In this document: one piece after another, positions 1,212 through 31,311 of the stretch
Layout of the letters: each line of letters begins with the position of its first letter
How positions within the stretch are numbered: the first letter of the stretch is position 1
Source of the DNA: an uncultured bacterium
Lineage (GTDB): Bacteria > Abyssobacteria > SURF-5
Reading direction: 5' to 3'
DNA: 64,000 bases
Assembly (NCBI GenBank): GCA_964607485.1
Contig: CAZSKP010000007.1
Location: forward strand, 58,117 to 122,116
Notes under the pieces: generated by a model
The model's database searches: none
Told to the model about the DNA's origin: nothing
Seen by the model: the letters and a program-made list of their open reading frames with translations, nothing else
Program-made: the position numbers and the translations under genes

Positions 1212-2375
1212 ATGAGGATTATCCTTTACACCGGCAAGGGCGGCGTGGGCAAGACGACAATCTCGGCCGCCACCGCCGTGCGCTGCGCCGAACTGGGTCA
1301 TAAGACCATCGTAATGAGCACCGACCCGGCGCACAGCCTCGCCGATTCGCTCGACTGCAAGATAGGCGTCAAGCCGAAGAGGATGAACGAGAACCTCATG
1401 GCCGAAGAGATAAACGTGCATGAGGAGCTGAAAAAGAACTGGGGCCGCATCCAGACGTACATAAAGAAGTTTCTCAAGAGCCGCGGCTTTGAGGACCTCA
1501 TGGCGGAGGAGTTCGCCGTCTTCCCGGGCATGGAGGAGCTGTTCAGCCTGTTGAAGCTGAGAGATTACGCCGAGCACGAAGCGTACGAAGTCGCGATAAT
1601 CGACTGCGCCCCCACGGCGAGCACCGTCCGCATGCTGAGCGTGCCCGACGTGATACGCTGGTACATGGACCGCTTCTTCGACATCGAACGCCGCATCGTG
1701 AAAACGGTGAGGCCCATCGCGGAGCGCATCACGAAAGTGCCCTTCCCCACCGACGACGTGTACGATTCGGTCGAGGATTTGTTTCACAAGGTGGAGGGGA
1801 TGAAGGGGATACTGACCGACTCGAAGAAGGCGTCCATCCGGCTCGTGTTCAACCCCGAGAAGATGGTCATCAAGGAGTCGCAGCGCGCGTACAGCTACCT
1901 GAACCTTTTCGGCTTCACCGTCGATGCCGTCATAGCGAACCGCATCTATCCCGATGAGATAGACGACGCCTATTTCGACCGCTGGCGGACGGCGCAGACG
2001 AAGTATCTCGAACAGGCGAAGGCCGTGTTCGAGCCGCTCCCGATATTCGCGGGCAAGCTGTTCGACCGCGAGATGGTCGGCCTGAAGCTGCTCCACGCGC
2101 TCGCGGACAACATCTTCGGCGACACCGACCCGGCACAGGTGTTCTACAGCGAGCCCCCGATAAAGATCAAACAGGTGGACGGACGGTATAAGATGTCGAT
2201 ACACCTGCCGGGCACCCAGAAGAAGGACCTCAACATCTGGTTTGCGGGAGAGGAGCTCATCGTCGAGGTCGGCAGCTACCGCCGCAACATCCTGCTCCCT
2301 CGAAGCCTGGCACAGACGGAGATCGTCGAGGCCAAATTCGAGGGTGACGACCTCAACATAATCTTCGGGAAATAA
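1212..2375 (+). CDS. ArsA/GET3-family ATPase with C-terminal HSP20/alpha-crystallin-like domain (GET3d type)
   Basis: GKGGVGKTT, STDPAHSLADS, PGMEE, DCAPTAST; C-terminal beta-rich YKMSIHLPG...EELIVEVGSYRRNILLPRSLA...AKFEGDDLNIIF. Confidence 0.92.
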   Translation: MRIILYTGKGGVGKTTISAATAVRCAELGHKTIVMSTDPAHSLADSLDCKIGVKPKRMNENLMAEEINVHEELKKNWGRIQTYIKKFLKSRGFEDLMAEEFAVFPGMEELFSLLKLRDYAEHEAYEVAIIDCAPTASTVRMLSVPDVIRWYMDRFFDIERRIVKTVRPIAERITKVPFPTDDVYDSVEDLFHKVEGMKGILTDSKKASIRLVFNPEKMVIKESQRAYSYLNLFGFTVDAVIANRIYPDEIDDAYFDRWRTAQTKYLEQAKAVFEPLPIFAGKLFDREMVGLKLLHALADNIFGDTDPAQVFYSEPPIKIKQVDGRYKMSIHLPGTQKKDLNIWFAGEELIVEVGSYRRNILLPRSLAQTEIVEAKFEGDDLNIIFGK

Positions 2376-2380
2376 GCCCC

Positions 2381-2731
2381 ATGACCCCAAAGCGCCCCGT
2401 CGCAGGCGACGGATTCATCCAGGACCTCCTGCCGTTGGTGAAGAACGGCTTCGTGATCCTCCGCTCGATTCTCGACATACTGATAGAACGAATCGAGGAG
2501 GCGGAGAAGGAGCGGCAGGTCGATATTCGGAAGGAGACCTACGCGTCGATAGTGGACGCGCTCGAGGCCGAGGTCGAGAACGTGCGCAGCAAGGAAGCCG
2601 ACACCCCGCTGGGCGATACGAAGATAGAGGTGCTCGAGGCGGTCATCTCCGTCCTCTTGAGCGAAATGGAAGAGCTTGAAGCGAGGGGCCGGAAGAAGGG
2701 GAAGCGCCCGCACAAAGTGAAAATAGAATAG
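2381..2731 (+). CDS. Hypothetical helical protein, probably co-transcribed with the GET3-like ATPase
   Basis: 5 nt after the upstream stop; helical/coiled composition; ends in basic patch then KVKIE. Confidence 0.8.
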   Translation: MTPKRPVAGDGFIQDLLPLVKNGFVILRSILDILIERIEEAEKERQVDIRKETYASIVDALEAEVENVRSKEADTPLGDTKIEVLEAVISVLLSEMEELEARGRKKGKRPHKVKIE

Positions 2732-2994: not shown

Positions 2995-4284
2995 TCATCC
3001 GAACCAGGCGGATTTCCGCTTCTTCAACATATCGTCGAGCATGTCCTGAATCTTGTCGCGAACGTCCTCCCTGATTCTGCTGACGAGAATTTCGTCTTTG
3101 GCCGCCTGCTTTCCGTATTTTTCGAACCGGACGGGCTTGCCGAACCGTATCCGCCACTTGCTCGGAAGCGGAATCAATCCGAGCGGCCCCAGAAGAGGCC
3201 ACGCGGGGGTGACGGGGACATAGGGGAGGCCGAACGGTTTTCCCAACCTTTCGAACCGGGCGATTATCGGATATATCTCCTCCGCTCCCACGACGGCGAC
3301 CGGCACCAGAGGCGCCTTCGTCAGCATGCACAGCTTGACGAATCCGCCGCGGCCGAACCTCTGCAGTTGGTATCTCTCCGCGAACGGCTTGCCCGTGCCT
3401 TTCTCTCCCTCCGGGAAGACGCACACGAGGTTGCCCTGTTGCAGCAGGCGCTCCGCATTCTGCCGTGATGCCCTTGCGGCGCCGATACGCGCGAGAAAAG
3501 GAGCCAGGAAGGGAAGCGTGCCGAACATATCCTCGACCAGGAAGCGCACGTCCCGCTCGGTTGGGCCCTCCAGCTTGACGGCCTCGCCGATCATTATGCC
3601 GTCGAAGGGAAGCATGCCGGAATGGTTGGCCACGAGCAGCGCCGCTCCTTCGTCGGGCACGTTTTCAACGCCCTCGGCCTCCACTCGCCAGTACTTCTCG
3701 TAGAGCCATTCGAACAATGGCTCGACCCTCTCTGTATAGACCGGGTCTTTCCCGAACTCATCCACGTCGTCGGAGCGGCCGCGCAGCCGCAGCTCGCCGA
3801 ACAGCCTGCCCACCTTGTGCGGCGACGCCGTCTCGAACAACCGGCCAAGCAGCCCCGGCTCGCCCCGTTCGTCTGAGGAAAGCGTCGAGGTGCTCTCGGT
3901 GGTCGATTCCTCTTCCGGCGTGGCGTATTCCCCGGCGGCCGGGCGCTCTTTCTTCTTCCTTTGGGCGGGCCGTTCCGCCGGCGAACGTTTCTGCTTAGCC
4001 GCCTTCTTGGGTCTCTTCGACGACTTGCCCGGCTTCTCATCGGGTCGCCGGGCCTGCGTCACTGTTTTCTCTTCCCTCTCCTCTTCGCCCGCTGCCTCCG
4101 GCGGCCCCGCCGAGGGCTCGATGAGCTTGACGCGTTTGAGCGAAGGCTTATTCGCGCCGAGACCGGTCAGAGATTCTCCCGATTCCTCTCTGGCGTCGGC
4201 TTCCGCTTCTTGCGTCTTCGCTCCCGGTTTCTTAACCCCCTCGGAACGGGCGAAAGGGTCACTGCCGAGAACCTTTCTTGGCAT
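2995..4284 (-). CDS. Lysophospholipid/glycerolipid acyltransferase (PlsC superfamily) with long charged N-terminal extension
   Basis: LLVANHSGMLPFDG and VFPEGEKG blocks, DEFGKDP and LIPLPSKWRIRFGKP; first ~150 aa low-complexity K/E/P/A-rich. Confidence 0.9.
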   Translation of the reverse strand: MPRKVLGSDPFARSEGVKKPGAKTQEAEADAREESGESLTGLGANKPSLKRVKLIEPSAGPPEAAGEEEREEKTVTQARRPDEKPGKSSKRPKKAAKQKRSPAERPAQRKKKERPAAGEYATPEEESTTESTSTLSSDERGEPGLLGRLFETASPHKVGRLFGELRLRGRSDDVDEFGKDPVYTERVEPLFEWLYEKYWRVEAEGVENVPDEGAALLVANHSGMLPFDGIMIGEAVKLEGPTERDVRFLVEDMFGTLPFLAPFLARIGAARASRQNAERLLQQGNLVCVFPEGEKGTGKPFAERYQLQRFGRGGFVKLCMLTKAPLVPVAVVGAEEIYPIIARFERLGKPFGLPYVPVTPAWPLLGPLGLIPLPSKWRIRFGKPVRFEKYGKQAAKDEILVSRIREDVRDKIQDMLDDMLKKRKSAWFG

Positions 4285-5041
4285 TTTGCAAGACCTCCCG
4301 GGCCAATTCTCCCAGCATCTCGGCCCCCGTGCTGCGAGGGTCGTACTCCCATATCGTCAGCCCATGACTCTGTGCCTCGTCGATTCGGACGTTGTATCGA
4401 ATGACCGTGTCGGCGAGCCGGTCGCCGAAGTGTTCGCTGAGTTTGCCCAGTATTTCGTCCGCGAGGTTCGTGTTGCGGTACAGCGTGGGGACCACCATGC
4501 TCACGCGAAGGCCTCGCCGGCCGAATTCCTCTTTGACGGAGCCGACGGTGTCCATTATCTCGGCGCAGCCGTCGAGCGCAAAGTAGGTGAGCGAGACGGG
4601 GATGATTATCTCGTCGACGGCCAGCATTATGTTTGTGGTGATGAGCCCCAGCGAGGGCGGCGAATCGAATATCACATAGTCATATCCCCGAAGGCCGTCG
4701 AACTTCTGCTTCAGCCTCCACTCCCGGTCGCTCTCCCGAACGGCTGACAGTGGAAACCGGGTGAGCGACTTGTTGGAGATGATGACGTCGAGTCCTTCTA
4801 TCCTGCTGGGCTGGGTCACGTCCGCCGGTCGCAGCCTCTCATCGGAGAGCAGCTCGTACACAGTCTGCTCGGAATTGCGGACGTCGAGCCCCAGCGATTT
4901 TCCCACCTGTCCCTGGGGGTCCATGTCCACGAGCAGCACGCGCAGTCCCTCCTTGAGGGCGAAGTACGCGCCCACGTTGACCGCGAGGGTGGTCTTACAG
5001 CTTCCCCCCTTTTCGTTTACGAAGGCGATCTTCCTCATCAC
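4259..5041 (-). CDS. ParA/Soj-family ATPase
   Basis: NEKGGSCKTT deviant Walker A, VLLVDMDPQG, YDYVIFDSPPSLG, TVIRYNVRIDEAQSHG; overlaps both neighbours. Confidence 0.93.
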   Translation of the reverse strand: MMRKIAFVNEKGGSCKTTLAVNVGAYFALKEGLRVLLVDMDPQGQVGKSLGLDVRNSEQTVYELLSDERLRPADVTQPSRIEGLDVIISNKSLTRFPLSAVRESDREWRLKQKFDGLRGYDYVIFDSPPSLGLITTNIMLAVDEIIIPVSLTYFALDGCAEIMDTVGSVKEEFGRRGLRVSMVVPTLYRNTNLADEILGKLSEHFGDRLADTVIRYNVRIDEAQSHGLTIWEYDPRSTGAEMLGELAREVLQNAKKGSRQ

Positions 5042-6063
5042 ATTTCGGATGCGGTGGCGAGTTGAATCTTACGGAGGCGCTTGGCCCCGGCAAAGCTCAG
5101 GGCTGCCTCCCGGGTGGAATATCGAGGTTCGAATCCCAGGTCCGTCTGCGCCTTCTTCCCGTCGGCGACCCACAGGTATCGTATGTAGTCGAGATGTTGT
5201 CCGGGCGCGTCGGCGGCGTTCACGAGCCAGAGCGTCGAGACCATGGGGTAAGCCAGCGTGGGAACCAACGGGAGGCGGAATCTCCCCATCAGGCTGATCA
5301 CGGTGCTCAGGGGGAGAACTCCTTTGCCCACGATGTTGTAAGTGCCCGAACGATTCTTCTTGATCGCGGCCACAAACGCCCGTGCCGCGTCTTCTTCGTG
5401 GAGAAACTGCACCAGCGGGTCGTAGCCCATCAGCGTGGGAACGAACAGGCGGTTGAAATACTGGGTGGCGAGGTTTTGGACCGTCGGCCCGAGTATCGTC
5501 GCGAGCCGAAGCACCGTGACGACGGCGCCCGGGTGCGACTCTCTGAAGCGCTTGGCGAGGTTCTCCACCTCGATCCTGTCGCGGATATACCGGTAGCTCT
5601 TGTTGCCGTCCAGCGGATGGTCCTCGGGGAGGAGGTTGGGGTTCCGCGGGGAAGCGCCATAGACGGCGGTAGTGCTGGCGAGTATCAGCTTCTTCACGCC
5701 CGCCTTCGCGCACGCGTTGAGCACGTGCATCGTGCCGATGACCTCCAGTTCATGCGCGTATGACTCGTCCTTGACGGGCCGGCTGAAAACTGCCAGGTGA
5801 ACGACCGTGTCGCACGCGCGGCTGCTGAGTATTTCCGCAACGGAGGAGGGGGACGTGGGCTGTGTCAGGTCAATGTTGTGGAATTGCACACGTTTCGAAG
5901 TGAGCGAAGGCTTTTTGACATCGAGACAAACGATCTCTCCGCCAAAGTTCTTGTCTTCCGCCAGGGCCCTGGCAAGGCGCGTGCCGAGGAAGTTCGACGC
6001 CCCCGTGATAGCAAGGCCTCCGAGGATGGAAGCCGATTTCCGCCGGGTTCGCTTCTTGGCCAA
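5038..6063 (-). CDS. NAD-dependent epimerase/dehydratase (extended SDR)
   Basis: ITGASNFLG, VVHLA, STTAVYGA, YIRDR at the YxxxK position, QFLHEED, GTYNIVG; ATGA overlap with parA. Confidence 0.9.
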   Translation of the reverse strand: MAKKRTRRKSASILGGLAITGASNFLGTRLARALAEDKNFGGEIVCLDVKKPSLTSKRVQFHNIDLTQPTSPSSVAEILSSRACDTVVHLAVFSRPVKDESYAHELEVIGTMHVLNACAKAGVKKLILASTTAVYGASPRNPNLLPEDHPLDGNKSYRYIRDRIEVENLAKRFRESHPGAVVTVLRLATILGPTVQNLATQYFNRLFVPTLMGYDPLVQFLHEEDAARAFVAAIKKNRSGTYNIVGKGVLPLSTVISLMGRFRLPLVPTLAYPMVSTLWLVNAADAPGQHLDYIRYLWVADGKKAQTDLGFEPRYSTREAALSFAGAKRLRKIQLATASEM

Positions 6064-6131: not shown

Positions 6132-6160
6132 AATCTAACACCTCGGGCATGGTTTGTCAA
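6132..6160 (-). promoter_or_regulatory. Putative sigma70 promoter for SDR-parA-acyltransferase
   Basis: Minus strand TTGACA (6160-6155), 17 nt, TAGATT (6137-6132). Confidence 0.55.
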
Positions 6161-6271
6161 GAAACCGTCTCCTTCCCGAAGCGCCCGACCTCGGCGTGTG
6201 CGCGAACGCACAGAAAAGAGGCGGATCGTTGGGCGACCCGCCTCACGGTGAAAGAGAAAATGACCGGCCCG

Positions 6272-6688
6272 TTACTTGCCCCTCTTTGTCAGCTTGTTCA
6301 CCCTGCCTTCGAGCCGCTCGATTTTTTTCGAGAGTGCCTCGACATCTTTTTTCGTCGGCAGGCGGAAGCTCTTCAGGGTCTTTTCGATTCTTCCGTCGAT
6401 GCTCTTCTCGAGGTCCCTGCGGTTTCTCCGAGTCCTCTTGCGGAAGTCGTTGACTATCTTCTTGCCCTCTTTTTCCGAGGCTTCGCCCCGCTCGACGAGG
6501 TCTCGCACGAACTTTTCGATCCCCTCCTCCGCGATCGAGAATGCTCCCACCGACGCCAAGATCGGAGTGCGAAGGACGTCGATCCACGTCCACTTCTCAC
6601 GTTTCGCCTTTGCCTGCTGAGCCTTTCCCTTTGCTTTCGCCGTTGACTTCTTTGCGCTCTTCTTTGCTTTCTTTGCGGCCATGTCCAT
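6272..6688 (-). CDS. Phasin (PhaI/PhaF-like granule-associated protein) with Lys/Ala-rich N-terminus
   Basis: LASVGAFSIAEE...LVERGEASEKEGKK...LPTKKDVEALSKKIERLE signature; N-terminus AAKKAKKSAKKSTAKAKGKA. Confidence 0.88.
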   Translation of the reverse strand: MDMAAKKAKKSAKKSTAKAKGKAQQAKAKREKWTWIDVLRTPILASVGAFSIAEEGIEKFVRDLVERGEASEKEGKKIVNDFRKRTRRNRRDLEKSIDGRIEKTLKSFRLPTKKDVEALSKKIERLEGRVNKLTKRGK

Positions 6689-6694
6689 ATCCTC

Positions 6695-7285
6695 CTATTT
6701 CTTTTTGCGCGCCCTTGGTTTTGAGGGATGTGACTCCGAGAGGTGCGCGTCCAGTTTCTCGACTATCGAATCCACCCTCTTGGCAATCTTGGTCAAATCC
6801 GAACGGGTAGGGAGATGCATTGCCTCGACGAAAGCGCTCACCCTCTCATCGATCTGACTTTCCAGCGAGCGGCGGCGGTTTGTGACCGTTTTGGACAGGA
6901 GCCTCAAGTAGCTCTTGGCCTCATCTTCGCTCACCTCGCCATAATCGACCAGTTTTCTGTAATATTTCGAGGAGCTCTCCTCCGCCATTTGCATGGCGCC
7001 CTTGCCGGCCAGCCTCGATTTGCGCATTATCTCGTTCAGCTCTTTGCTGCCTCGGCGTATCAACTCTTTGAGCGTGTCGAGAGGCAGGACGCTGCCCTTG
7101 GATTTTTCCTCCTCGGCCATCGCCTGAGCGAGCACCACGCTGGTGAGGTCCTCGCCCGTACGGCTGTCCATCACTTCGACGTCGTCGCCCGCCCTCACGA
7201 GCTTCAGTATGTCGGGCAGGCTTACGTAGTGGCTTTCCTTCGTGTCGTAGAGCTTACGATTGGCATATCTCTTTATTGTGCGCAT
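6695..7285 (-). CDS. PhaR-type DNA-binding domain fused to a phasin-like domain
   Basis: IKRYANRKLYDTKESHYVSL...TGEDLTSVVLAQ; C-terminal LVDYGEVSEDEAK and LPTRSDLTKIAKRVD. Confidence 0.9.
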   Translation of the reverse strand: MRTIKRYANRKLYDTKESHYVSLPDILKLVRAGDDVEVMDSRTGEDLTSVVLAQAMAEEEKSKGSVLPLDTLKELIRRGSKELNEIMRKSRLAGKGAMQMAEESSSKYYRKLVDYGEVSEDEAKSYLRLLSKTVTNRRRSLESQIDERVSAFVEAMHLPTRSDLTKIAKRVDSIVEKLDAHLSESHPSKPRARKKK

Positions 7286-7343
7286 CGTGGCGGAACTCCC
7301 GCTTTGTCAAACGCCGGCCGATTCAAAACTGTCTCAAAGCGAA

Positions 7344-7372
7344 ATTATAACACACTGCGTCAAAATTGTCAA
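7344..7372 (-). promoter_or_regulatory. Consensus sigma70 promoter for phaR-phasin
   Basis: Minus strand TTGACA (7372-7367), 17 nt, TATAAT (7349-7344). Confidence 0.75.
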
Positions 7373-7409
7373 TTCGGTGGATTTCGGTGCTTTTTCCAAA
7401 CGATTCGGG

Positions 7410-7523
7410 GTCATTGCGAGCGAGAGTCACAGACTCGACCGAAGCAATCTCGGAGGCCTTTTTCCCAATGCCATCGGGATTGCTTCGTCGCCCGAGCTTG
7501 CAGCTCTTTGCTCCTCGCAATGA
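7410..7523. repeat. GTCA-type inverted-repeat element (GTCATTGCGAG variant)
   Basis: TCATTGCGAG...CTCGCAATGA termini with inner GAAGCAATC/GATTGCTTC pair. Confidence 0.75.
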
Positions 7524-22688: not shown

Positions 22689-23696
22689 TCAACCGAATTG
22701 TCGCACGCGCTCGTCGAGTTCGTCGTAGGGGAAGAATGTCTGGTAGTCGGCCAGCGCCGCCAGCGCGCGCGAATGGGATTTGATGCCCTTTTCTTCGAGG
22801 ATGGCCGCAGGGTTCAGTCCGCCGATGACGACCGCGCCCACCTGGCCCTGGTTCACCGGAATCTCGAGAAGCGGCTGGCCCGGCCACCCGATACTCATGA
22901 AGCCGCCCAGCCCGACTTTCTCCAACTGGTGGGCGAGCTCTATCACGTGGTCCCTGCTTTCCGCCGGCACCTCCCTGAAGCTGGCTCCGATGCGGCCGTT
23001 GCCGTTCTTCGTGGCGCCGAGGTAGTCGGTCATGCCGCTGCGGATAAAAATCTCCAGCGGGTCCAGCGTGGTGCCGCTGTAGTGGATGTATTGCACGAAT
23101 CGGGTGGGTTTGTAATCCTGCAGTTCCAGAAGCCCGCCGAACCGTGAGTACGTGGGGATGCCGTGCGACAACAACACGCCGTTCAACGTAATCGAACACA
23201 CGGTGCCTATACCCACCATGCCTTCAGGCACAGCGTCTTCGCCCACGCGTTCTCCGGGAGGCAGCAACGCCATTAGGCGTCCCATGGCGTAGCCGGCTGC
23301 GAACACCCTCTTAATCAGCGGCGCGGCGCTCTTCAGCTGCGATTTCTCCACCATGCTCACATTGACGACGACGGTTCCCTTCTTGCTCGAGAGGTCGAAG
23401 TTCATGCGGTAGGTGAGTTGGTCGATCTTCGCGGCAAGGTAGCCGACCTTTTCGATGATCCTCGCGCTCGCCAGCTCGTCCAGCCCCCGCCGCGTGATGA
23501 GCCGGCCTCTCCTCCCAAGATTCTCCGTCAGCCCATCCTTGTCCATAGAGTTCAGGTGGAAACGCACCGTGCGCTCGCTGATCTCATGGCCCTCGGCGAG
23601 GAGCCTCTCGGTAATCTTCGAGCTGCCGGTCGGCTTGTCGGCCTCCTGCAGAATCCTTAATATCGCGAGACGCTTTTTTTCGGTTTTTTCTCCCAT
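22689..23696 (-). CDS. nrpR: NrpR-family nitrogen regulator (wHTH + single NRD/DUF128 domain)
   Basis: ISERTVRFHL wHTH; GTVVVNVS, GTVCSITLNGVLL, RFGGLL, YSGTTLDPLEIF, GGLNP. Confidence 0.88.
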   Translation of the reverse strand: MGEKTEKKRLAILRILQEADKPTGSSKITERLLAEGHEISERTVRFHLNSMDKDGLTENLGRRGRLITRRGLDELASARIIEKVGYLAAKIDQLTYRMNFDLSSKKGTVVVNVSMVEKSQLKSAAPLIKRVFAAGYAMGRLMALLPPGERVGEDAVPEGMVGIGTVCSITLNGVLLSHGIPTYSRFGGLLELQDYKPTRFVQYIHYSGTTLDPLEIFIRSGMTDYLGATKNGNGRIGASFREVPAESRDHVIELAHQLEKVGLGGFMSIGWPGQPLLEIPVNQGQVGAVVIGGLNPAAILEEKGIKSHSRALAALADYQTFFPYDELDERVRQFG

Positions 23697-23962
23697 GCCG
23701 GCCATTCTACCACAAAATATGCCGTTTTGCAAGTGTTAATCGGTAATTTTGCCGGTAATGACGGGAATGATGGAGCTGTCCGCTGCTCTCGAATCTCGCC
23801 TAATTCTCCGCATTGCACAGGAACTCACTCGGCATCTCCTGCCTCCCAGTCTCCTTTTCTTGCCGGGACTCCAGCTTTTTTGCCGCAAATGTACCGGTAA
23901 TTCTGCCGGTTAACATTGCCCTTGCATCTCAAGATTTGTCGTATTTTATGTGTATTTTCCTA

Positions 23963-24150: not shown

Positions 24151-25758
24151 ATGAACCTGCATCGTCCGAACGCAAACGAGGCGCTACAGACCACCAACCG
24201 GTCACGTCACGTTTCGCCTCAGTCGGGAATCTGCAGCCGGTGTGTGGACGGCTGCAAAGGAGGCTGCGACCTCTTTACCTCCACATTCCGAGGCAGGGAG
24301 CTTTTGTATCCGGGACCATTCGGCGAGATCACCGCGGGCGCCGACAAGGACTATCCCGTGGATTATTCCCATCTGAACATCATGGGATACGCTCTGGGAG
24401 CGGAAGGCACGCAGGCCGACCCCGACCACGCAACGTTCCCGTCGGTCAACACTGAGACGGAGTTCGGGACGGACAACAAGGTCAAGATGAAGGTTCCCGT
24501 CTTCACCGGAGCGCTGGGGAGCACCGACATCGCCCGCAAGAACTGGGAACACTTCGCCGTCGGCGCGGCCATCAGCGGAATCAGCCTGGTGTGCGGCGAG
24601 AACGTCTGCGGAATCGACCCCAAACTCCAGCTCGACTCCAACGGCAAGGTGAAGGAAGCCCCCGACATGCGCCGCAGGGTGGAGGAATACCGCCGCTACC
24701 ACGAGGGATACGGCGACATTCTCGTTCAGATGAACGTCGAGGACACCCGCTTCGGCGTGGCCGAATACGTCATCGACAAGCTGGGCGTCGAGACCATCGA
24801 GCTGAAGTGGGGCCAGGGCGCCAAGTGCATCGGCGGCGAGATCAAGGTGAATTCGCTCGAGCGCGCCATAGAGCTCAAGAAGCGCGGCTACATCGTCACT
24901 CCCGACCCCGAAGAGCCCGCGAACCAGGCTGCCTTCAAGGACGGCGCGATCAAGCAGTTCGAGCGCCATTCCCGGCTGGGCTTCATCGACTATGAGGGCT
25001 TCATCAGCGAGGTCGAGCGGCTCCGCAAGCTGGGCGCCAAGCGCGTGACGCTCAAGACCGGCGCCTACCCGATGCGCGAGCTGGCCATGGCCATCAGGTG
25101 GTGTTCCGACGCGAAGATCGACCTTCTCACCATCGACGGCGCTCCAGGCGGAACCGGCATGAGCCCGTGGCGCATGATGGCCGAGTGGGGCGTGCCCTCG
25201 ATTTACCTGCATTCAATGGCGCACGAGCTGTGCCGCATGCTGGAAGCGAAAGGCCAATTCGTGCCCGACATCGCGTTTGCCGGCGGTTTCAGCGCGGAAG
25301 ACCACGTATTCAAGGCGATAGCGCTCGGCGCTCCTTACACAAGGGCCGTCTGCATGGGCCGCGCCCTGATGATCCCCGGAATGGTCGGCAAGAATATCGC
25401 AAACTGGCTCAACGGCACGAACGGCGAGCTGCCCAAGACCGTCGCCAAATACGGAAAAACCAAAGAGGAAATATTCGTCTGCTACGAGGAGCTGAGAGCG
25501 AAGTACGGAGACGAGGCCGACAAGATGCCTCTGGGCGCCATCGGAATATACAGCGCCACAGAAAAAATCCGCGTCGGCCTGCAGCAGCTCATGGCGGGCG
25601 CGAGAAAATGGCGGGTGGACCTGATCAAGCGCGAGGACCTCGCCTCGCTGACCGAGGAATGCGCCAAGGTCACCGGAATCCCGTACATCATGGACGCCTA
25701 CCGAGCGGAAGCGCTCGACATCATCAACGCCAAAGCACTCACCGGCGTGACTGCCTGA
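24151..25758 (+). CDS. FMN-binding glutamate synthase family protein (stand-alone type)
   Basis: ELKWGQGAKCIGGE, TIDGAPGGTGMSP, AGGFS..DHVFKAIALGAP, MGRA; N-terminal CSRCVDGCKGGC. Confidence 0.9.
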   Translation: MNLHRPNANEALQTTNRSRHVSPQSGICSRCVDGCKGGCDLFTSTFRGRELLYPGPFGEITAGADKDYPVDYSHLNIMGYALGAEGTQADPDHATFPSVNTETEFGTDNKVKMKVPVFTGALGSTDIARKNWEHFAVGAAISGISLVCGENVCGIDPKLQLDSNGKVKEAPDMRRRVEEYRRYHEGYGDILVQMNVEDTRFGVAEYVIDKLGVETIELKWGQGAKCIGGEIKVNSLERAIELKKRGYIVTPDPEEPANQAAFKDGAIKQFERHSRLGFIDYEGFISEVERLRKLGAKRVTLKTGAYPMRELAMAIRWCSDAKIDLLTIDGAPGGTGMSPWRMMAEWGVPSIYLHSMAHELCRMLEAKGQFVPDIAFAGGFSAEDHVFKAIALGAPYTRAVCMGRALMIPGMVGKNIANWLNGTNGELPKTVAKYGKTKEEIFVCYEELRAKYGDEADKMPLGAIGIYSATEKIRVGLQQLMAGARKWRVDLIKREDLASLTEECAKVTGIPYIMDAYRAEALDIINAKALTGVTA

Positions 25759-25788
25759 GGCGGCGTCCTTTCAACTCCTGCACGAACC

Positions 25789-25830
25789 TGCGGCGGGGGC
25801 CTCACCGGGCCTCCGCCGCATGCTTTTTTT
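25789..25830 (+). terminator. Rho-independent terminator
   Basis: TGCGGCGGGGGCC / GGCCTCCGCCGCA stem followed by T7. Confidence 0.75.
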
Positions 25831-25856
25831 CGGCGTGTCGCCCAAATGAATCATCA

Positions 25857-25936
25857 TGGATTCCCCGGTCAAGCCGGGGAATGACATCCATAAAGCATCA
25901 ACAAGGTCTTGTCATTCCCGCGACAGCGGGAATCCA
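25857..25936. repeat. Pair of ATTCCC-N-GGGAAT palindromes (GTCATTCCC type)
   Basis: TGGATTCCCCGGTCAAGCCGGGGAATGAC and GTCATTCCCGCGACAGCGGGAATCCA; related to 54376-54468. Confidence 0.8.
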
Positions 25937-26173
25937 GTCTCATCGCAAACGAATCATTTAGATAATAGGCCCTCTTTTCTCTCCTTTTTCACTCACGTCG
26001 ACGCTGAGCGACAGCGCCAGACCGTCTCTCGGCCCAAGATTTTCCGCTTGCAAGTCCATTCAAAAATTGCTATCATGTAATGGAGCTTTGTGCCAAGTTA
26101 TCGGTGCCCCAATAACAGAGTGCAGAGCGCTCAGAAGCGAACCCCATATTATGAAGGAAGAAGGAAAGACTCA

Positions 26174-26575
26174 GTGTCGGAATTTTACGTTTTTGCCTGC
26201 CAGCATCGTGTACCCGAAGACTGGCGCCCGCCCTTTACTCCTGAAAATATCAACGGGCAAAAAGTTCGCCTGATCCAGCTTCCCTGTTCCGCCAAGCTCA
26301 CCACTGTTCAAATGTTGCGACCATTCGAGAAAGGCATCGATGGAGTTCTGGTGATGGCCTGCGACGTGAAGGCGTGCCGGTCGCTCGAGGGCAGCCGGCG
26401 GGCTCGAATGCGCGTGCGCGAGGCCAACAACGTTCTGGAAGAAGTCGGCCTCGGTTCCCATCTGGTCGTGATCGAACAGGCGGCGGGAAGGACTCAGGAG
26501 GCGTACATCGAGGCGATAGAGAAACTGGCTGCGCAAACGGAAGGGCAGGGGACAGTGAATCTGCCTGATAATTAG
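26174..26575 (+). CDS. MvhD/FlpD-like [2Fe-2S] protein
   Basis: VFAC...RLIQLPCSAK...FEKGIDGVLVMAC...C...G...LEEVGL; GTG start after AAGGAAAG. Confidence 0.8.
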   Translation: MSEFYVFACQHRVPEDWRPPFTPENINGQKVRLIQLPCSAKLTTVQMLRPFEKGIDGVLVMACDVKACRSLEGSRRARMRVREANNVLEEVGLGSHLVVIEQAAGRTQEAYIEAIEKLAAQTEGQGTVNLPDN

Positions 26576-26702
26576 TGGATAGTCACAATTGCAGTTGACG
26601 GTCAAGATACAAGATTCCGTACGGGCGCAGCATGCCGCGCCCCCACAAGGAATTCCACAACCGTGGGACGGATTCACCGTACCCGGAGAACTATGTTTCG
26701 GC

Positions 26703-26738
26703 TTCTGTAGGGGCGGTTCGCGAAGCGTCCCTACAGAA
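26703..26738. repeat. GTAG-type REP-like palindrome
   Basis: TTCTGTAGGGGCGGTTCGCGAAGCGTCCCTACAGAA; a more degenerate copy lies near 26619-26646. Confidence 0.8.
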
Positions 26739-26806
26739 ACATCCGCGCGAGTGGACAGGGAGTGTCCCCGTCGCGCACAAACCCCGTAAAGAGGAAATGA
26801 CGGCAA

Positions 26807-27487
26807 ATGATTATTGCGGAACGCAAACCGATTAGAGAAATCCTCGACATGATAGAAGGTGCCGACACCGTGCTCGTGGCCGGCTGCGCCACGTGCGTGG
26901 CCGACTGCATGGCGGGCGGCGAGCGCGAGGTCGGAATACTCGCCTCAGGCCTGCGGATAGCGCTGAAACAAGAAGGCAAGAATGCCGAAATCATCGAGGT
27001 CACCGTCGAGCGCCAGTGCGAGCGCGAATTCATCGAGAACATCCGCGAGCTGGTCGAAAGAGCCGACGTCGTCGTCTCGACCGCGTGCGGAATCGGCGTG
27101 CAGGCGATGGCCGAGCGCTACCGCAAAACGCCCATCTATCCCGGCGTCAACACCACGTTCCTCGGCCTGCGCGAAGAAGAGGGCCTGTGGACGGAACGCT
27201 GCGCGGCGTGCGGCGAGTGCACGCTGCACCTCACGGGCGGAATCTGTCCGGTCGCACGCTGCTCGAAGAGCCTGCTGAACGGACCGTGCGGCGGTTCGAC
27301 GGCCGGAAAGTGCGAGATATCCGAGGAGGTCGATTGCGGCTGGCAGCTTATCATCGACCGACTGGAAGCATTGGGACAACTGGACAGGTTGGAGGCGAAT
27401 ATTCCTCCAAAGAATTGGGCCACCTCGCGCGACGGGGGTCCTCGAAAAGTCATAAAGAAAGAGATGAGAGATGAAGAGCGGAAGTAA
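26807..27487 (+). CDS. metV: Methylene-THF reductase small Fe-S subunit
   Basis: GCATC..C..GG, ERQCE, ACGIGVQ, ERCAACGEC.L..TGGICPVARCSKSLLNGPCGG...CGW. Confidence 0.92.
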   Translation: MIIAERKPIREILDMIEGADTVLVAGCATCVADCMAGGEREVGILASGLRIALKQEGKNAEIIEVTVERQCEREFIENIRELVERADVVVSTACGIGVQAMAERYRKTPIYPGVNTTFLGLREEEGLWTERCAACGECTLHLTGGICPVARCSKSLLNGPCGGSTAGKCEISEEVDCGWQLIIDRLEALGQLDRLEANIPPKNWATSRDGGPRKVIKKEMRDEERK

Positions 27488-28406
27488 TCTCGAGAAAGTG
27501 CTTCAAGCCGGCCACCCCGCCGTGACGGCGGAACTGGGGCCGCCCATGGGCTGCAACGCCGAAGTGGTCAAGAAGAAGATCGAGCTGCTCAGGGGCACGG
27601 CCGACGCGTTCAACGTCACCGACTGCCAAACGGCGGTCGTGCGGATGAGCAGCATCGCCGCATCCATCTTCATCGTCCAGGCGGGCATGGAGCCGGTCAT
27701 GCAGATGACCTGCCGCGACCGCAACCGCATCGGCATACAGAGCGACATCCTCGGCGCAGCCGCCCACGGCATCAAGAACTGCCTCTGCATCGCGGGCGAC
27801 CATCAGTCGTTCGGCGCCGCCGGCAAGCTCAAGGGGCATCCGGGTTCGAAGAACGTGTACGACGTCGATTCGATTCAACTGGTAGGCATACTGAAAGGCC
27901 TGCGCGACGAGGCGCGTCAGCAGGGGGGCGACCCGCTCGGCGAAAGCGTGCCACTGTTCATCGGCGCGGCATGGACGCCGCTGGGCGACCCCGTCGAAAT
28001 CCGGACCATCCGGTTGGCGAAGAAAATCAACGCGGGCGCCGATTTCATCCAGACGCAGGCCGTGTTCGACATAGAAAAATTCTCAGAGGCCATGCGAAAG
28101 GCCCGCGACCGCGGGCTGCACGAGCGCACCGCCATCCTGGCCGGCATCATCGTGCCCAAGAGCGCGGGCATGCTCTCGTACATGAACAAGTCGGTCCCCG
28201 GAGTGATAGTGCCGCAGGAGCTCATAGACCGCATGAAGGCGGCGTCGGACCAACGCGCCGAGGGCATCGCCATCGCGGTCGAGCTCGTCCAACAGGTTTT
28301 GCAGATAGAAGGCGTCCGGGGCGTTCACGTCCAGGCGATCGAGTGGGAATCGGCGGTCAGAGAGGTCGTGGGCGGAGCGGGGTTGCTGCCACGCCCGACC
28401 GTTTAG
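27471..28406 (+). CDS. metF: Methylenetetrahydrofolate reductase
   Basis: VTAELGPP, NVTD, QMTCRDRNRIGIQSDILGA, KKINAGADFIQTQ, GVHVQAI. Confidence 0.95.
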   Translation: MKSGSNLEKVLQAGHPAVTAELGPPMGCNAEVVKKKIELLRGTADAFNVTDCQTAVVRMSSIAASIFIVQAGMEPVMQMTCRDRNRIGIQSDILGAAAHGIKNCLCIAGDHQSFGAAGKLKGHPGSKNVYDVDSIQLVGILKGLRDEARQQGGDPLGESVPLFIGAAWTPLGDPVEIRTIRLAKKINAGADFIQTQAVFDIEKFSEAMRKARDRGLHERTAILAGIIVPKSAGMLSYMNKSVPGVIVPQELIDRMKAASDQRAEGIAIAVELVQQVLQIEGVRGVHVQAIEWESAVREVVGGAGLLPRPTV

Positions 28407-28419
28407 GGGAAGGAAGGAA

Positions 28420-29823
28420 ATGCCCAAGAAGTACCACATCAAAGCGCAGTTGATGCCCCCACGCTTTCCGCCGGTGCCGAAATATTCGATGATCGAGAGA
28501 GAGGGATGCCTGGGATGCCTCGAGTGCGCCAAGCGGGAATGTGTGTACGAGGTGTACAAGAATCGGAGGTTCGACCCCGACCGCATGGTCGATTCCATCG
28601 ACTATCTCTGCAAGAACTGCCTGCGCTGCATCCAGGGCTGTAAGAACCAGCTTATCACCAAGATGAAGAATCCGGACTTCGAGGCGTTGGGAGACGAGTA
28701 CTGGAGACCCGACCTCATCGCCAGCCTGTGGGAACAAGCCACGACCGGCAAGATTCCGGTCTCGGGCGCGGGCTACCGCGGGCCGTTCTCCGGCCCCGGA
28801 TTCGACTCGATGTGGACCGACATGTCCGAGATCGTCCGGCCTACGCGCGACGGCATCCACGGCCGCGAATACATCAGGACGTCGGTGGATATTGGGCGCA
28901 AGCATGCCCGGCTGGAGTTCGACAAGAGCGGCGGGATGCGTTCCGAGCCTCACCCGTTGGTGGAGCTTCCCGTGCCGTTCATCTTCGACAACCTCCCGTT
29001 CGGCGTGGTCAACGAGAACGTGCGGGCGGGCTTCGTGCGCGCGGCCGAGATGGTGGGCTCGATGGCGGTCGTGCCGGAGAGCGAGATCGACTGGAAGCTG
29101 ATGGCGCATATCGACAGCCTCATTCCAATAATTTCCTCGACCGACCTCGAAGCCGAGGGCGTGAGAGAATTAATCAGTCGCTCCAGCATGGTTGAGTTGG
29201 AGGATTCGCCCGATGTGATCGAGCGGATGAAGGCCGTCAAGGCGCTCCATCCGGCGACGGTGGCCTGCGTGCGCATTCCGATGAACAAGAACGCGAGCGC
29301 GCGCATCGAACAGCTCACCCGCGCGGGAGCCGAGGTCGTGCACATGGTGGCCGACTGGCAGGGAAATGAGCCCGACGACCCGAGCCCGAGGTTCGTCAAA
29401 GAGGTTCTGCGCGAGGCGCACCTGAACTTGATAGAGAACGCTCTGCGCGACGAGGTGACCATCATCGCCACCGGCGGCATCGCGATGGCGGAGCACGTTG
29501 CCAAGGCCATCGTCTGCGGCGCCGACCTTGTCGGCATCGACATGGTGGTCGAGGTGGCGCTCGAATGCCGCGTATGCAAGCGGTGCGTGCGCGGGCTGAG
29601 CTGTCCTGTGGCTATCGAGACGGTTGATCCCGAGTGGGCAGCCCTGCGGATTCGCAACCTGGTCTGCTCGTGGCATTCGCAGTTAATAGAGGTGTTGGGC
29701 GCGATGGGACTCCGCGAGGTGAGGCGGCTCCGGGGCGAGGTGGGCCGCGCGATGTTTTTCGAGGACATGGAGAAGGAGGCATTCGGCGATGTCAAAGTCG
29801 CCACGGACGCTCACCGTTCGTGA
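28420..29823 (+). CDS. Glutamate synthase-related FMN-domain subunit with N-terminal ferredoxin-like Cys clusters (divergent)
   Basis: CLGCLEC..C, CKNCLRCIQGC, GKIPVSGAGY, LRDEVTIIATGGI...KAIVCGAD, CRVCKRC..CP, GAMGLREV. Confidence 0.82.
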   Translation: MPKKYHIKAQLMPPRFPPVPKYSMIEREGCLGCLECAKRECVYEVYKNRRFDPDRMVDSIDYLCKNCLRCIQGCKNQLITKMKNPDFEALGDEYWRPDLIASLWEQATTGKIPVSGAGYRGPFSGPGFDSMWTDMSEIVRPTRDGIHGREYIRTSVDIGRKHARLEFDKSGGMRSEPHPLVELPVPFIFDNLPFGVVNENVRAGFVRAAEMVGSMAVVPESEIDWKLMAHIDSLIPIISSTDLEAEGVRELISRSSMVELEDSPDVIERMKAVKALHPATVACVRIPMNKNASARIEQLTRAGAEVVHMVADWQGNEPDDPSPRFVKEVLREAHLNLIENALRDEVTIIATGGIAMAEHVAKAIVCGADLVGIDMVVEVALECRVCKRCVRGLSCPVAIETVDPEWAALRIRNLVCSWHSQLIEVLGAMGLREVRRLRGEVGRAMFFEDMEKEAFGDVKVATDAHRS

Positions 29824-31297
29824 TGAATATTCGCACCTGACCGGACGCGAGGCGGTTCACACGCCGTCGCGCTTCCGCAACCGGGTGTCCAAATACAGGG
29901 TGTTCCGCAGCCAGGCATGCGACGCGGGCGGTAAGTGCGCAAAGCTGTGCCCGTACGGCGTTCACGTTCGAAGCGGCGACCGGATGCTGCGGCCGAGGGA
30001 ATGGCTGTGCATCGGCACCGCCTGCGAGAAGAACGATTTCTACTGCATCAGCCAATGCCCCAAGGGCGCTCTCTCGCTCGGCCTCAACCCGCTGTTCGAG
30101 ACGCTCGGCGACGCGCGCTGGCCCGCCGACATGCTTCTGGCCACGTGGGTGATGGCGGAGACGGGCGACGTTCCGGCAAACGGGCTCGAGTATCAATTCG
30201 GCCGTTCGGGCGGCGGCTTCGACAAGCTCGCCTTCGATTTTCCCGCCGGAGCGGGCGCCGGCATGGACGAGGACGGGATAGACCTGAGCATCGACCTCAA
30301 CCGTCGCGACGACAACGCCTACAGAATACGGATCGACCTTCCCGTCTATGGCGGCGGCATGTCGTTCGGCTCGGTGAGCGCAAACACGATGCTCGGCCGC
30401 GCCATCGCGGCGCGCAACTGGAACACCTTCACCTGCACGGGCGAAGGCGGCTATCCCGACGTGCTCGTGCCCCTCGCCAAACACATCATCACGCAGGTCG
30501 CCACCGGCCTGTTCGGCGTGCGCGAGGAAACCATCCAGCGCGCGCCCATCGTCGAGTTCAAGTATGCGCAGGGTGCGAAGCCCGGACTGGGCGGCCATCT
30601 GCTGGGCGACAAGGTGACGCCCGACGTCGCCCGCATGAGGGAGGCCGTCGCCGGCAGCGCGCTGTTTTCGCCCTTCCCGTTCCATTCGGTCTATTCGGTG
30701 GAAGACCATAAGAAGCACGTGGACTGGATAAAGGCCATAACGCCAAAATCGCTCATCTCGGTCAAGGTGTCCACACCGACCGACGTCGATATGGTGGCCG
30801 TGGGCAGTTATTACGCCGACGCCCACATCGTGCACATAGACGGCAGCTACGGCGGCACTGGCGCGGCTCCGGACATTGCGAAGAAGAACATCGCCATGCC
30901 GATCGAATACGCCATCCCGAAGGTGCACAAGTTTCTCATCGAGGAAGGTGTTCGCGAGCGCATTGCCCTTATCGCTTCGGGCGGCATCCGCAATCCATGG
31001 GACGTGGCCAAGGCCATCGCGCTGGGCGCCGACGGGGTCGTCATCGGCACGGCCGAGATGGTGGCGCTCGAATGCGTGCGCTGCGCGAACTGCGAGAGCG
31101 GACGCGGCTGCGCGCGCGGGATCGCAACCACCGACCCGGGGCTGGCGCCGCTGGTTTCGGTCGAGTACGCGGCCCGACGCCTGAGCAACATGTACCTGGC
31201 CTGGGCCAAAGAGTTGAGGCGAATCCTAAAGGGTTTGGGCATGCGCAGTGTTCGTGAATTGGTGGGACGCACCGATTGCCTGGTGCGGCTCCCGTGA
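29789..31297 (+). CDS. Glutamate synthase FMN-binding subunit (GltB2-like)
   Basis: GGMSFGS, TGEGG, QVATGLFGV, FKYAQGAKPGLGGHL, DGSYGGTGAAP, CVRCANCESGRGCARGIATTD. Confidence 0.9.
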   Translation: MSKSPRTLTVRDEYSHLTGREAVHTPSRFRNRVSKYRVFRSQACDAGGKCAKLCPYGVHVRSGDRMLRPREWLCIGTACEKNDFYCISQCPKGALSLGLNPLFETLGDARWPADMLLATWVMAETGDVPANGLEYQFGRSGGGFDKLAFDFPAGAGAGMDEDGIDLSIDLNRRDDNAYRIRIDLPVYGGGMSFGSVSANTMLGRAIAARNWNTFTCTGEGGYPDVLVPLAKHIITQVATGLFGVREETIQRAPIVEFKYAQGAKPGLGGHLLGDKVTPDVARMREAVAGSALFSPFPFHSVYSVEDHKKHVDWIKAITPKSLISVKVSTPTDVDMVAVGSYYADAHIVHIDGSYGGTGAAPDIAKKNIAMPIEYAIPKVHKFLIEEGVRERIALIASGGIRNPWDVAKAIALGADGVVIGTAEMVALECVRCANCESGRGCARGIATTDPGLAPLVSVEYAARRLSNMYLAWAKELRRILKGLGMRSVRELVGRTDCLVRLP

Positions 31298-31311
31298 TGG
31301 GATATAAAGGA

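Follow-up and report, generated by a model that had tools for sequence, protein, structure and literature searches.

The known cargos of ParA/MinD-family ATPases are DNA, the divisome, flagella, chemoreceptor arrays, carboxysomes and conjugation machines (PMC10241942), and the partners of these ATPases generally act via a short, positively charged, disordered N-terminal peptide (PMC10241942; bioRxiv 10.1101/2025.12.01.691545). Helicobacter pylori ParB begins with MAKNKVLGRG (residues 1-10), of which ParA contacts K3, V6, L7 and R9, and the R9A substitution abolishes binding (PMC11229316). In Myxococcus xanthus ParB, residues L11, L15, L18 and I19 enter a hydrophobic cleft of ParA, and the R13A variant retains binding while ATPase stimulation is lost (PMC12462528). 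As a principle, an orphan ParA with a partner that carries an N-terminal tag is already known. We describe a locus where the candidate partner is an enzyme. It lies in a stretch of 64,000 nucleotides from contig CAZSKP010000007.1 of an uncultured bacterium (Abyssobacteria, SURF-5), which is called the window throughout. A gene for a glycerolipid-type acyltransferase starts there within the 3' end of an orphan parA gene, which itself follows a gene for an extended short-chain dehydrogenase/reductase (SDR). The first 11 residues of the acyltransferase form a conserved motif, and it is a little short of an even chance, in our judgement, that this tag is a docking peptide for a ParA-family ATPase.

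The acyltransferase gene and its overlap with parA have the following features.

2995..4284, minus strand: acyltransferase open reading frame (ORF), 429 aa, ATG start, N-terminus MPRKVLGSDPFARSEG.

4252..4284, minus strand: short linear motif at the N-terminus (residues 1-11, MPRKVLGSDPF) with the core LGx[DN]P[FL], assigned from conservation and from a weakly supported prediction of docking on a ParA dimer.

3853..4251, minus strand: disordered, hypervariable, charged tether, residues 12-144, assigned from a pLDDT (predicted local distance difference test) of 30-48, composition and variation among homologues.

3793..3852, minus strand: two short helices, residues 145-153 and 155-164, predicted with low confidence (AlphaFold2/DSSP), the second being amphipathic.

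2995..3774, minus strand: acyltransferase catalytic domain, residues 171-429, with PF01553 (E 1.4e-17) at residues 200-331 and a weak match to DAGAT (PF03982, E 3.7e-05).

4294..4299, minus strand: Shine-Dalgarno sequence GGGAGG of the acyltransferase, within the parA coding sequence (upstream region GGGAGGTCTTGCAAAATG), with a 9-nt spacer to the ATG.

4259..4284, minus strand: 26-nt overlap, encoding the end of ParA (NAKKGSRQ*) and, in a different frame, acyltransferase codons 1-9 (MPRKVLGSD).

4259..5041, minus strand: orphan ParA-type ATPase with the deviant Walker A motif KGGSCKT (AAA_31, E 1.5e-44).

As parA occupies 4259..5041 and the ATG of the acyltransferase is at 4284, translation of the enzyme would start 26 nt within the parA 3' end. 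An in-frame stop is found 72 nt 5' of this ATG with no start codon in between, later candidate starts are codons 75, 149 and 158, and the start Met is shared by 18 homologues in an alignment. Initiation at 4284 should yield the N-terminal peptides MPRKVLGSDPFAR or PRKVLGSDPFAR.

The conservation of the N-terminal peptide was analysed at several levels. Among the 120 best homologues, 20 (the window protein counted) begin with M-[PA]-[KR]-x-V-L-G-x-[DN]-P-F, and 18 homologues drawn from these 20 make up the motif alignment. M1, L6, G7 and P10 never vary in this alignment, and conservation reaches 90% or more at V5 and F11. Averaged over pairs, column identity is 0.72 in residues 1-11, drops to 0.19 for residues 12-50 and 0.29 for residues 51-144, and is 0.67 for the catalytic domain. 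In a family profile search over 1.84 billion cluster representatives, 5864 members were found at E<=0.001, and the best 150 were examined for the motif. The core LG.[DN]P[FL] is present within the first 30 residues of 32 of these, the motif beginning at residues 4-16, and has no occurrence in the other 58,819 residues of the 150 representatives. The N-terminal peptide is a real conserved motif, beyond chance.

A genome scan with one genome per species revealed at least 596 relatives of the acyltransferase (at least 599 stretches), of which the best 80 loci were kept. Three of these bear the motif, namely L015 (MANPRRPALGNDPF), L026 (MAKQVLGDNPF) and L068 (MAKRPVLGNDPF); a further homologue, P0034, begins with MAKNVLGSNPF. 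On a FastTree phylogeny of 200 catalytic domains the motif takes 7 changes, compared with a mean of 22 after shuffling, and the starred branches force at least two. The motif is clustered in the tree, where L015 and L068 are on long branches, and may have arisen once or several times. A homology search with residues 1-40 for other families that bear the tag recovered the query alone (5 candidates), phmmer with residues 1-32 gave no match to PDB chains at E<=10, and a search of the ESM Atlas with residues 1-40 gave no usable match.

Other clades of the acyltransferase family carry other N-termini. Loci from Actinobacteria within L041-L080 (e.g. L052, L054, L058, L074) have a basic tether headed by another conserved peptide, of the type (A/S)-K/R-(A)-x-V-I-P-(L/F)-(H/D), as in MADAKVIPFDDDRSR and MAGDSKAKVIPLHGN. 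In P0319, P0331, P0345, P0359, P0366, P0373 and others, the LGxDPF tag is replaced by a Cys-rich N-terminus (C..ATT..G..C.N...G...C..H-like), possibly a zinc ribbon. A loose form of this pattern fits 8 of the 150 representatives, and Pfam sees only the acyltransferase domain in P0319. Many Myxococcota-type homologues (P0020-P0064) have an acidic N-terminal motif, (G)P(D/E)SLSP(S/D)VVDGDPG, instead of LGxDPF, and lysine-rich N-termini also occur in Myxococcota-type sequences of the family. The occurrence of differing N-terminal modules on similar tethers across clades suggests exchangeable address tags with various partners.

The tag is followed by about 140 positions that vary among homologues in length and in sequence. 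An AlphaFold2 model, built on the alignment of 18 homologues, stays below a pLDDT of 50 at residues 1-8 and 10-169 and becomes confident only with the domain that starts near residue 170; 80% of residues 13-150 are disorder-promoting and 10% are hydrophobic. The tether contains a basic block (residues 76-115, net charge +13), which includes KSSKRPKKAAKQKR (residues 87-100, nt 3985-4026), and an acidic Ser/Thr-rich block (residues 116-143, net charge -7). The highest hydrophobic moment within the first 175 residues, 0.66, is at residues 155-165, and the predicted helices at residues 145-164 are a possible anchor to a membrane or lipid surface. The best fold match of the catalytic domain (Foldseek) is PlsC from Thermotoga maritima (5kym, E 2.6e-07, TMt 0.60). 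Its invariant NHSG..P.D block consists of N220, H221, S222, G223, P226 and D228, with an H-x6-D spacing where H-x4-D is canonical. No transmembrane segment is predicted in the acyltransferase (top 19-residue hydropathy 1.64), and no NCBIfam model scores above its cutoff. Mycobacterial members of the family are among the best 80 loci (e.g. L034, L036, L047), which probably correspond to the Rv0501/Rv0502 pair. In one report, Rv0502 is given only as a conserved PlsC homologue (PMC10593935).

These results bear out much of the initial annotation of this DNA, which had been made from the letters alone. It had the protein begin with MPRKVLGSDPF inside the parA 3' end, in agreement with the ORF and the 26-nt overlap, and it had noticed about 140 aa of disordered, charged sequence before the catalytic domain, as is found in the model and in the composition. 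It had also raised the prospects of a start further downstream and of an unconserved peptide; the start is upheld by the Shine-Dalgarno sequence, the upstream stop and the Met common to the 18 homologues, and the peptide is far better conserved than the tether.

The ATPase encoded upstream is of the ParA type. Its true start is likely the ATG at 5038, with a 1-nt overlap with the stop codon of the SDR gene, as judged from the window sequence and from the consensus start of homologues, MRRIAF. The closest solved relatives are M. xanthus ParA (8ray, E 4.1e-41) and the Soj proteins of Thermus thermophilus and H. pylori; the match to 1wcv has an E of 2.6e-38. Comparisons were made over the 120 closest ParA homologues, 12 rows of which are tied to an acyltransferase and 108 are not. 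Residues aligned to K11, K16, D39, D41 and D126 are conserved across the aligned homologues; Lys occupies the K11 and K16 positions throughout the 108 unlinked homologues, and of the 12 linked rows 11 have it as well. In one pairwise alignment, the window ParA keeps the equivalents of M. xanthus Y81, E82, L150, L152 and R238, while D110 and E117, which are near ParB R13 in M. xanthus, are replaced by Ser and Ser. The M. xanthus R238E variant serves as a ParA probe (PMC12462528). As the Arg aligned with R238 is retained, the window ParA is presumably on the nucleoid; DNA binding, like the nature of the cargo, is inferred. The residue at position 215 adjoins this Arg (R-Y-N-V-R versus G-Y-N-V-K) and is Arg in all 12 acyltransferase-linked ParAs and Gly in 97% of the other 108, the clearest difference between the two groups, though one that is confounded by phylogeny. 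Among the columns that separate linked from unlinked ParAs, there is no clear signal in the peptide-binding pocket. Domain scans (Pfam) for neighbours, ParB and polyhydroxyalkanoate (PHA) synthase covered 57 ORFs within the window. They revealed no ParB domain; the acyltransferase is what sits downstream of parA instead.

The linkage to ParA is NEVERTHELESS conserved among the relatives of the window proteins. The closest acyltransferase relatives (P0002-P0012) are outside the 80 loci, and their linkage to ParA rests on two indirect lines of evidence, which agree. Eight pairs of acyltransferase and ParA homologues could be matched by a common source and an identical length of the longest contig, given in brackets: P0002/P0121 (4159), P0005/P0122 (15170), P0006/P0124 (69542), P0007/P0128 (71995), P0009/P0129 (13795), P0013/P0127 (41168), P0014/P0125 (16483) and P0034/P0148 (9259). 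A ninth match, P0008/P0184 (2524), was set aside, as the sources differ. For the second line, C-terminal tails of ParA homologues were back-translated and it was determined if the +1 or +2 frame can encode the motif. At least 7 motif codons fit in 11 of the 120 ParA homologues (P0121-P0123, P0125-P0129, P0148, P0151, P0191), and 3 of these fit 11 codons. In the control, 31 of 56,218 internal position-frames fit, so that about 1-2 chance matches are expected per 120 tails; the match of P0151 is probably one. Tails that fit only 4-6 codons (24 of 121, window included) were discarded as chance, the 4-codon pattern fitting 1292 of 56,218 position-frames; these include a related group that ends with RWP[AT]R[LR]*. 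P0148 shares only 60% identity with the window ParA, and its contig partner P0034 shares no more than 43% with the window acyltransferase. As these are so divergent from the window pair, the overlap architecture spans two acyltransferase clades. About 108 other ParA homologues (55-66% identical) are without the motif-overlap signature.

A search of the best 80 loci with a ParA profile detected a ParA-like gene in three only (L013, L015, L017). The gene detected in L015 is the chromosomal parA, which precedes parB, and the acyltransferase is encoded 4.4 kb downstream of parAB. In L026 and L068, the acyltransferase gene directly follows the SDR gene. L013 (6481-10704) and L017 (6852-11064) have the gene order SDR, acyltransferase, ParA-like ATPase of 283-290 aa and DUF3108. 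This ATPase is 26-27% identical to the window ParA and represents an independent second association with the ParA/MinD family; the acyltransferases of L013 and L017 have a conserved coiled-coil-like N-terminal region and no LGxDPF tag.

We predicted the complex of a ParA dimer (120-sequence alignment) with 2 ATP, 2 Mg and acyltransferase residues 1-32 (18-sequence alignment), as had been proposed in the initial annotation. The score is 0.55 (runs 0.56, 0.54 and 0.55), which is in a weak band, compared with 0.00 for the best of 3 controls. The runs agree on at least 82% of the contacts, and the partner has a pLDDT of 50 or more; the output did not define an interface. Of 157 solved complexes used for calibration, 116 attain the mark, as do 2 of 215 mismatched pairs; only 18 of these solved complexes, and both of the mismatches, do so with a score of 0.60 or less. 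The prediction thus weakly suggests that the tag binds ParA. Stimulation of the ATPase by the tag, and a tie between the ParA gradient and lipid synthesis, would go beyond this and are hypothetical.

Several characteristics are common between the tag and the peptide of ParB (Spo0J). It is located at the extreme N-terminus, in a disordered region, and in the window its gene is directly downstream of parA. The tag also shares the first half of the ParB peptide, basic-x-V/A-L-G (MPRKVLGSDPF and MAKNVLGSNPF, compared with MAKNKVLGRG). In one genome, L015, ParB (946-1806) and the acyltransferase (6210-7457), which begin with MVRSADKPTPRRNALGRGLSALI and MANPRRPALGNDPFAALG, share PRR-x-ALG (...PRRNALGRGLSALI and ...PRRPALGNDPFAALG), a similarity noted post hoc; across the six-frame open stretches of the loci, 1.7 million residues in total, the looser pattern [KR][KR].[AV]LG is seen 43 times. 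The ParB likeness has limits. The hydrophobic helix that follows in M. xanthus ParB (L15, L18, I19; PMC12462528) is absent from the tag, and the acyltransferase carries neither ParB_N (CTPase) nor a helix-turn-helix; Pfam finds Acyltransferase and DAGAT only.

The genes upstream of parA and the signals between them are listed here. Promoters and terminator-like hairpins were called in the window from consensus matches only.

5038..6063, minus strand: extended SDR of the NAD-dependent epimerase family (PF01370, E 3.7e-30).

6132..6160, minus strand: promoter-like site before the SDR gene, TTGACA-17-TAGATT, matching 10/12 with a TG extension, likely the start of the SDR-ParA-acyltransferase unit.

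6244-6218, minus strand: terminator-like hairpin after the phasin gene, which parts the phasin unit from the SDR unit.

6272-6688, minus strand: phasin (Pfam scan) with a strongly basic, lysine/alanine-rich, disorder-like N-terminus.

6695-7285, minus strand: PhaR-like gene (PHB_acc_N and phasin domain, Pfam scan).

7344-7372, minus strand: sigma-70 promoter before the PhaR-like gene, 12/12 consensus match.

The order on the minus strand is thus PhaR-like, phasin, SDR, ParA, acyltransferase. With the hairpin at 6244-6218 and a second promoter-like site at 6160-6132, the last three genes look like a separate operon of their own with touching or overlapping frames. A link to PHA granules, suggested by the PhaR-like and phasin neighbours, was considered and rejected: by the consensus scan the units are separately transcribed, and tblastn gave no phasin or PhaR match in any of the best 80 loci. 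No PHA synthase was found among the 57 window ORFs scanned.

In 75 of the best 80 loci the acyltransferase gene has an SDR homologue upstream of it in the same orientation, and natural fusions of SDR (Epimerase) and acyltransferase exist in P0300 (609 aa) and P0358 (600 aa). This indicates that the SDR-acyltransferase pair is an old functional unit, and the two fusions are Rosetta-stone evidence that both proteins act together. The basic N-terminus of the SDR (MAKKRTRRKS...) was also considered as a ParA partner and was rejected, as extensions of this kind are also found in loci without parA.

Convergent with the SDR-ParA-acyltransferase operon is a pair of genes on the plus strand. The first (window 1212-2375) codes for an ATPase of the ArsA/Get3 family (ArsA_ATPase, E 2.1e-93) whose C-terminal domain is HSP20-like, so that a second deviant-Walker-A ATPase adjoins the first. 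Its top NCBIfam model, Get3_fold_NosAFP, scores 180.8 bits, under its cutoff of 325. The second gene (window 2381-2731), 6 nt after the first, codes for a 116-aa protein without a family match. Further away, an NrpR-type regulator is encoded at 22689-23732 on the minus strand (NRD1_2, E 1.1e-80), next to split glutamate-synthase-like genes and a two-part methylenetetrahydrofolate reductase (24151-33924, plus strand). The NrpR family is typical of archaeal nitrogen regulation.

If the tag (core LGx[DN]P[FL], usually after K/R) docks on a ParA-family ATPase, which is the reading that needs the fewest assumptions, the parts of the locus could work together as follows. In the lineage of the window, the tag would have as its partner a dedicated ParA, inserted between SDR and acyltransferase and co-translated with its neighbours from overlapping frames. 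Amphipathic helices (residues 145-164) would hold the catalytic domain on a membrane or lipid surface, and the disordered tether of about 130 residues would let the tag reach ParA-ATP dimers, which are presumably nucleoid-bound. The enzyme, or its lipid body or membrane patch, would thereby be tied to the ParA pattern. As the activating Arg of ParB is missing, the tag may bind ParA without activating it; alternatively, R3 and K4 may activate ParA in place of the central Arg. Where the motif occurs without a dedicated parA, the tag may dock on the chromosomal ParA, as hinted by L015, or may have a partner other than ParA. A more far-reaching version would be a whole acyltransferase family with a ParB-mimicking tag that docks on nucleoid ParA-family ATPases, dedicated or possibly chromosomal, as a non-activating tether that competes with ParB and links lipid synthesis or storage to chromosome segregation. 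This version we regard as doubtful.

A number of observations weigh against ParA docking. The complex score of 0.55 falls into a range in which a pass is wrong more often than right unless the pairing was likely beforehand, and the pass may reflect likeness rather than binding, as ParA-ParB peptide complexes have already been solved. The tag is without the central Arg/Lys of the ParB peptide (LG-R/K-GL) and has x-[DN]-P-[FL] in its place, and its Pro does not fit the helical binding mode of ParB. The residue after LG is R in 5 of the 32 motifs, K in none, and N/D/S/T/H/E/F in 27. The initial annotation had proposed a ParB-type peptide with R3 and K4, both present in the window protein, as its basic key residues: the basic-x-V/A-L-G half stands and the Arg of LG-R-GL does not, nor are the basic residues universal. 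K/R is found among the five residues preceding the core in 27 of the 32 motifs and is missing in 5, and position 3 is K/R in 17 of the 18 aligned homologues and E in one.

The distribution of the genes also counts against this reading. The expectation that the motif occurs only beside parA fails, as all three motif-bearing loci among the best 80 are without an adjacent, dedicated parA: L015 has only the chromosomal gene, no parA was found within +-8 kb in L026, and none in the 11.8 kb of sequence of L068. In none of the best 80 loci is a parA located between the SDR and acyltransferase genes. Even of the closest ParA homologues, only about 12 of 120 can be tied to an acyltransferase, and most of this ParA subfamily may serve something else. 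The motif (32 of 150 clusters) is far wider spread than parA adjacency. That the partner is encoded directly downstream of parA holds for the window and, by inference, for the eight matched pairs and the 11 of 120 tails, and does not hold for the three motif-bearing loci. The central idea, that the lipid-synthesising enzyme itself is the ParA adaptor, accordingly stands in part: the conserved N-terminal peptide, the tether, the parA overlap, the recurring linkage and the weak complex score speak for it, the independence of the motif from parA and the unconserved Arg against it.

Several of these points would be accounted for if the motif binds another widely conserved partner, such as the SDR, a chaperone or a protein of the membrane or of cell division; the insertion of parA would then have nothing to do with the tag, and ParA would have some other protein as its real partner. 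We consider this possible but rather unlikely. The wide motif distribution without parA adjacency is in its favour, as is the weakness of the ParA complex prediction. The same can be said of the other modules found on like tethers in other clades, be they of the (A/S)K..VIP(L/F) type, Cys-rich (8 of 150) or lysine-rich. The phasin, with its strongly basic, disorder-like N-terminus, would be a candidate for the real partner of ParA, but its unit is split off by the terminator-like hairpin and has its own promoter. The SDR, for its part, is mostly paired with motif-less acyltransferases across the best 80 loci, and its basic N-terminal extension is not specific to loci with parA. No result points to any alternative partner, and both the likeness to ParB peptides, including that within one genome, and the parA frame overlap in two clades would have to be coincidence.

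The N-terminus could also be an intramolecular or lipid-directed element, i.e. an autoinhibitory peptide, a sensor of membranes or lipid droplets, or a stability signal. N-terminal peptides of ParB relatives can be membrane anchors, as in Noc, and an enzyme without a predicted transmembrane segment (maximal hydropathy 1.64) needs a route to its lipid substrates. For that role, however, residues 155-165 with their hydrophobic moment of 0.66 are better suited than residues 1-11, which have a moment of 0.20 and are about neutral in hydrophobicity, and an invariant Gly and Pro together with an acidic/amide residue would be unusual in a membrane-binding helix. AlphaFold2 sets the peptide, with a pLDDT below 50, nowhere against the catalytic domain, which is a weak argument given an alignment of 18 rows. 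We judge such an element to be improbable. Hardly credible is a miscalled start, with translation from codon 75, 149 or 158 and the conserved N-terminus reflecting constraint by the overlapping parA 3' end. Downstream starts are indeed annotated for two relatives whose contigs contain a ParA, P0013 (308 aa) and P0014 (263 aa), but the adjoining ParA tails are compatible with 8 motif codons and thus the annotated starts are probably wrong. ParA tails are otherwise unconserved. Moreover, the motif is kept in L015, L026 and L068 where no parA overlaps it, and residues 9-11 (DPF) fall past the parA stop. The Met common to 18 homologues, the Shine-Dalgarno sequence and the absence of an earlier start speak for the annotated start as well.

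Docking of the tag on ParA would add lipid synthesis or storage to the list of ParA/MinD cargos. New would be an enzyme as ParA partner, a ParB-like tag without the activating Arg, and its wide distribution; as 32 of the 150 representatives bear the tag, such a link would be a broad one, beyond a single uncultured lineage. In the openly available full-text literature, we found no paper with an acyltransferase or other lipid enzyme as ParA/MinD partner. A natural ParB-like peptide without the activating arginine would be a useful probe that separates binding from ATPase activation. The system is small, consisting of three genes and an 11-residue tag, and is thus directly testable in vitro and in a heterologous host.

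With respect to known systems, the enzyme itself belongs to the PlsC/LPLAT superfamily, as represented by T. maritima PlsC (5kym), with which it shares PF01553 and a PlsC-like fold. It differs in the N-terminal extension of about 170 residues, the lack of a predicted transmembrane segment, the H-x6-D block, the weak DAGAT match and the obligate pairing, at times as a fusion, with an extended SDR.

A similar concept, namely a lipid or polyester body that is distributed by being tied to the nucleoid, is realised by PhaF/PhaM of PHA granules and by MLDS of Rhodococcus lipid droplets (PMC5504291, PMC7590123). The PhaR-like and phasin genes just upstream and the lysine-rich block in the tether are reminiscent of these systems. 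However, PhaF/PhaM and MLDS bind DNA directly without a ParA, and in the window the phasin belongs to a separate transcription unit and PHA synthase is not among the 57 ORFs scanned.

McdA/McdB, PomZ/PomX and further ParA/MinD systems that position cargo resemble the locus in having an orphan ParA-type ATPase beside a non-ParB partner with a short N-terminal 'luggage tag' (PMC10241942; bioRxiv 10.1101/2025.12.01.691545). As in these systems, the tag would dock on the ATP dimer while the remainder of the partner specifies the cargo. The tag described here differs in that its positive charge is not universal and in that it occurs in many genomes without an adjacent ATPase. A further difference is the nature of the putative partner, which in this locus would be an enzyme of metabolism, namely an acyltransferase of the glycerolipid type that is coupled to an SDR.

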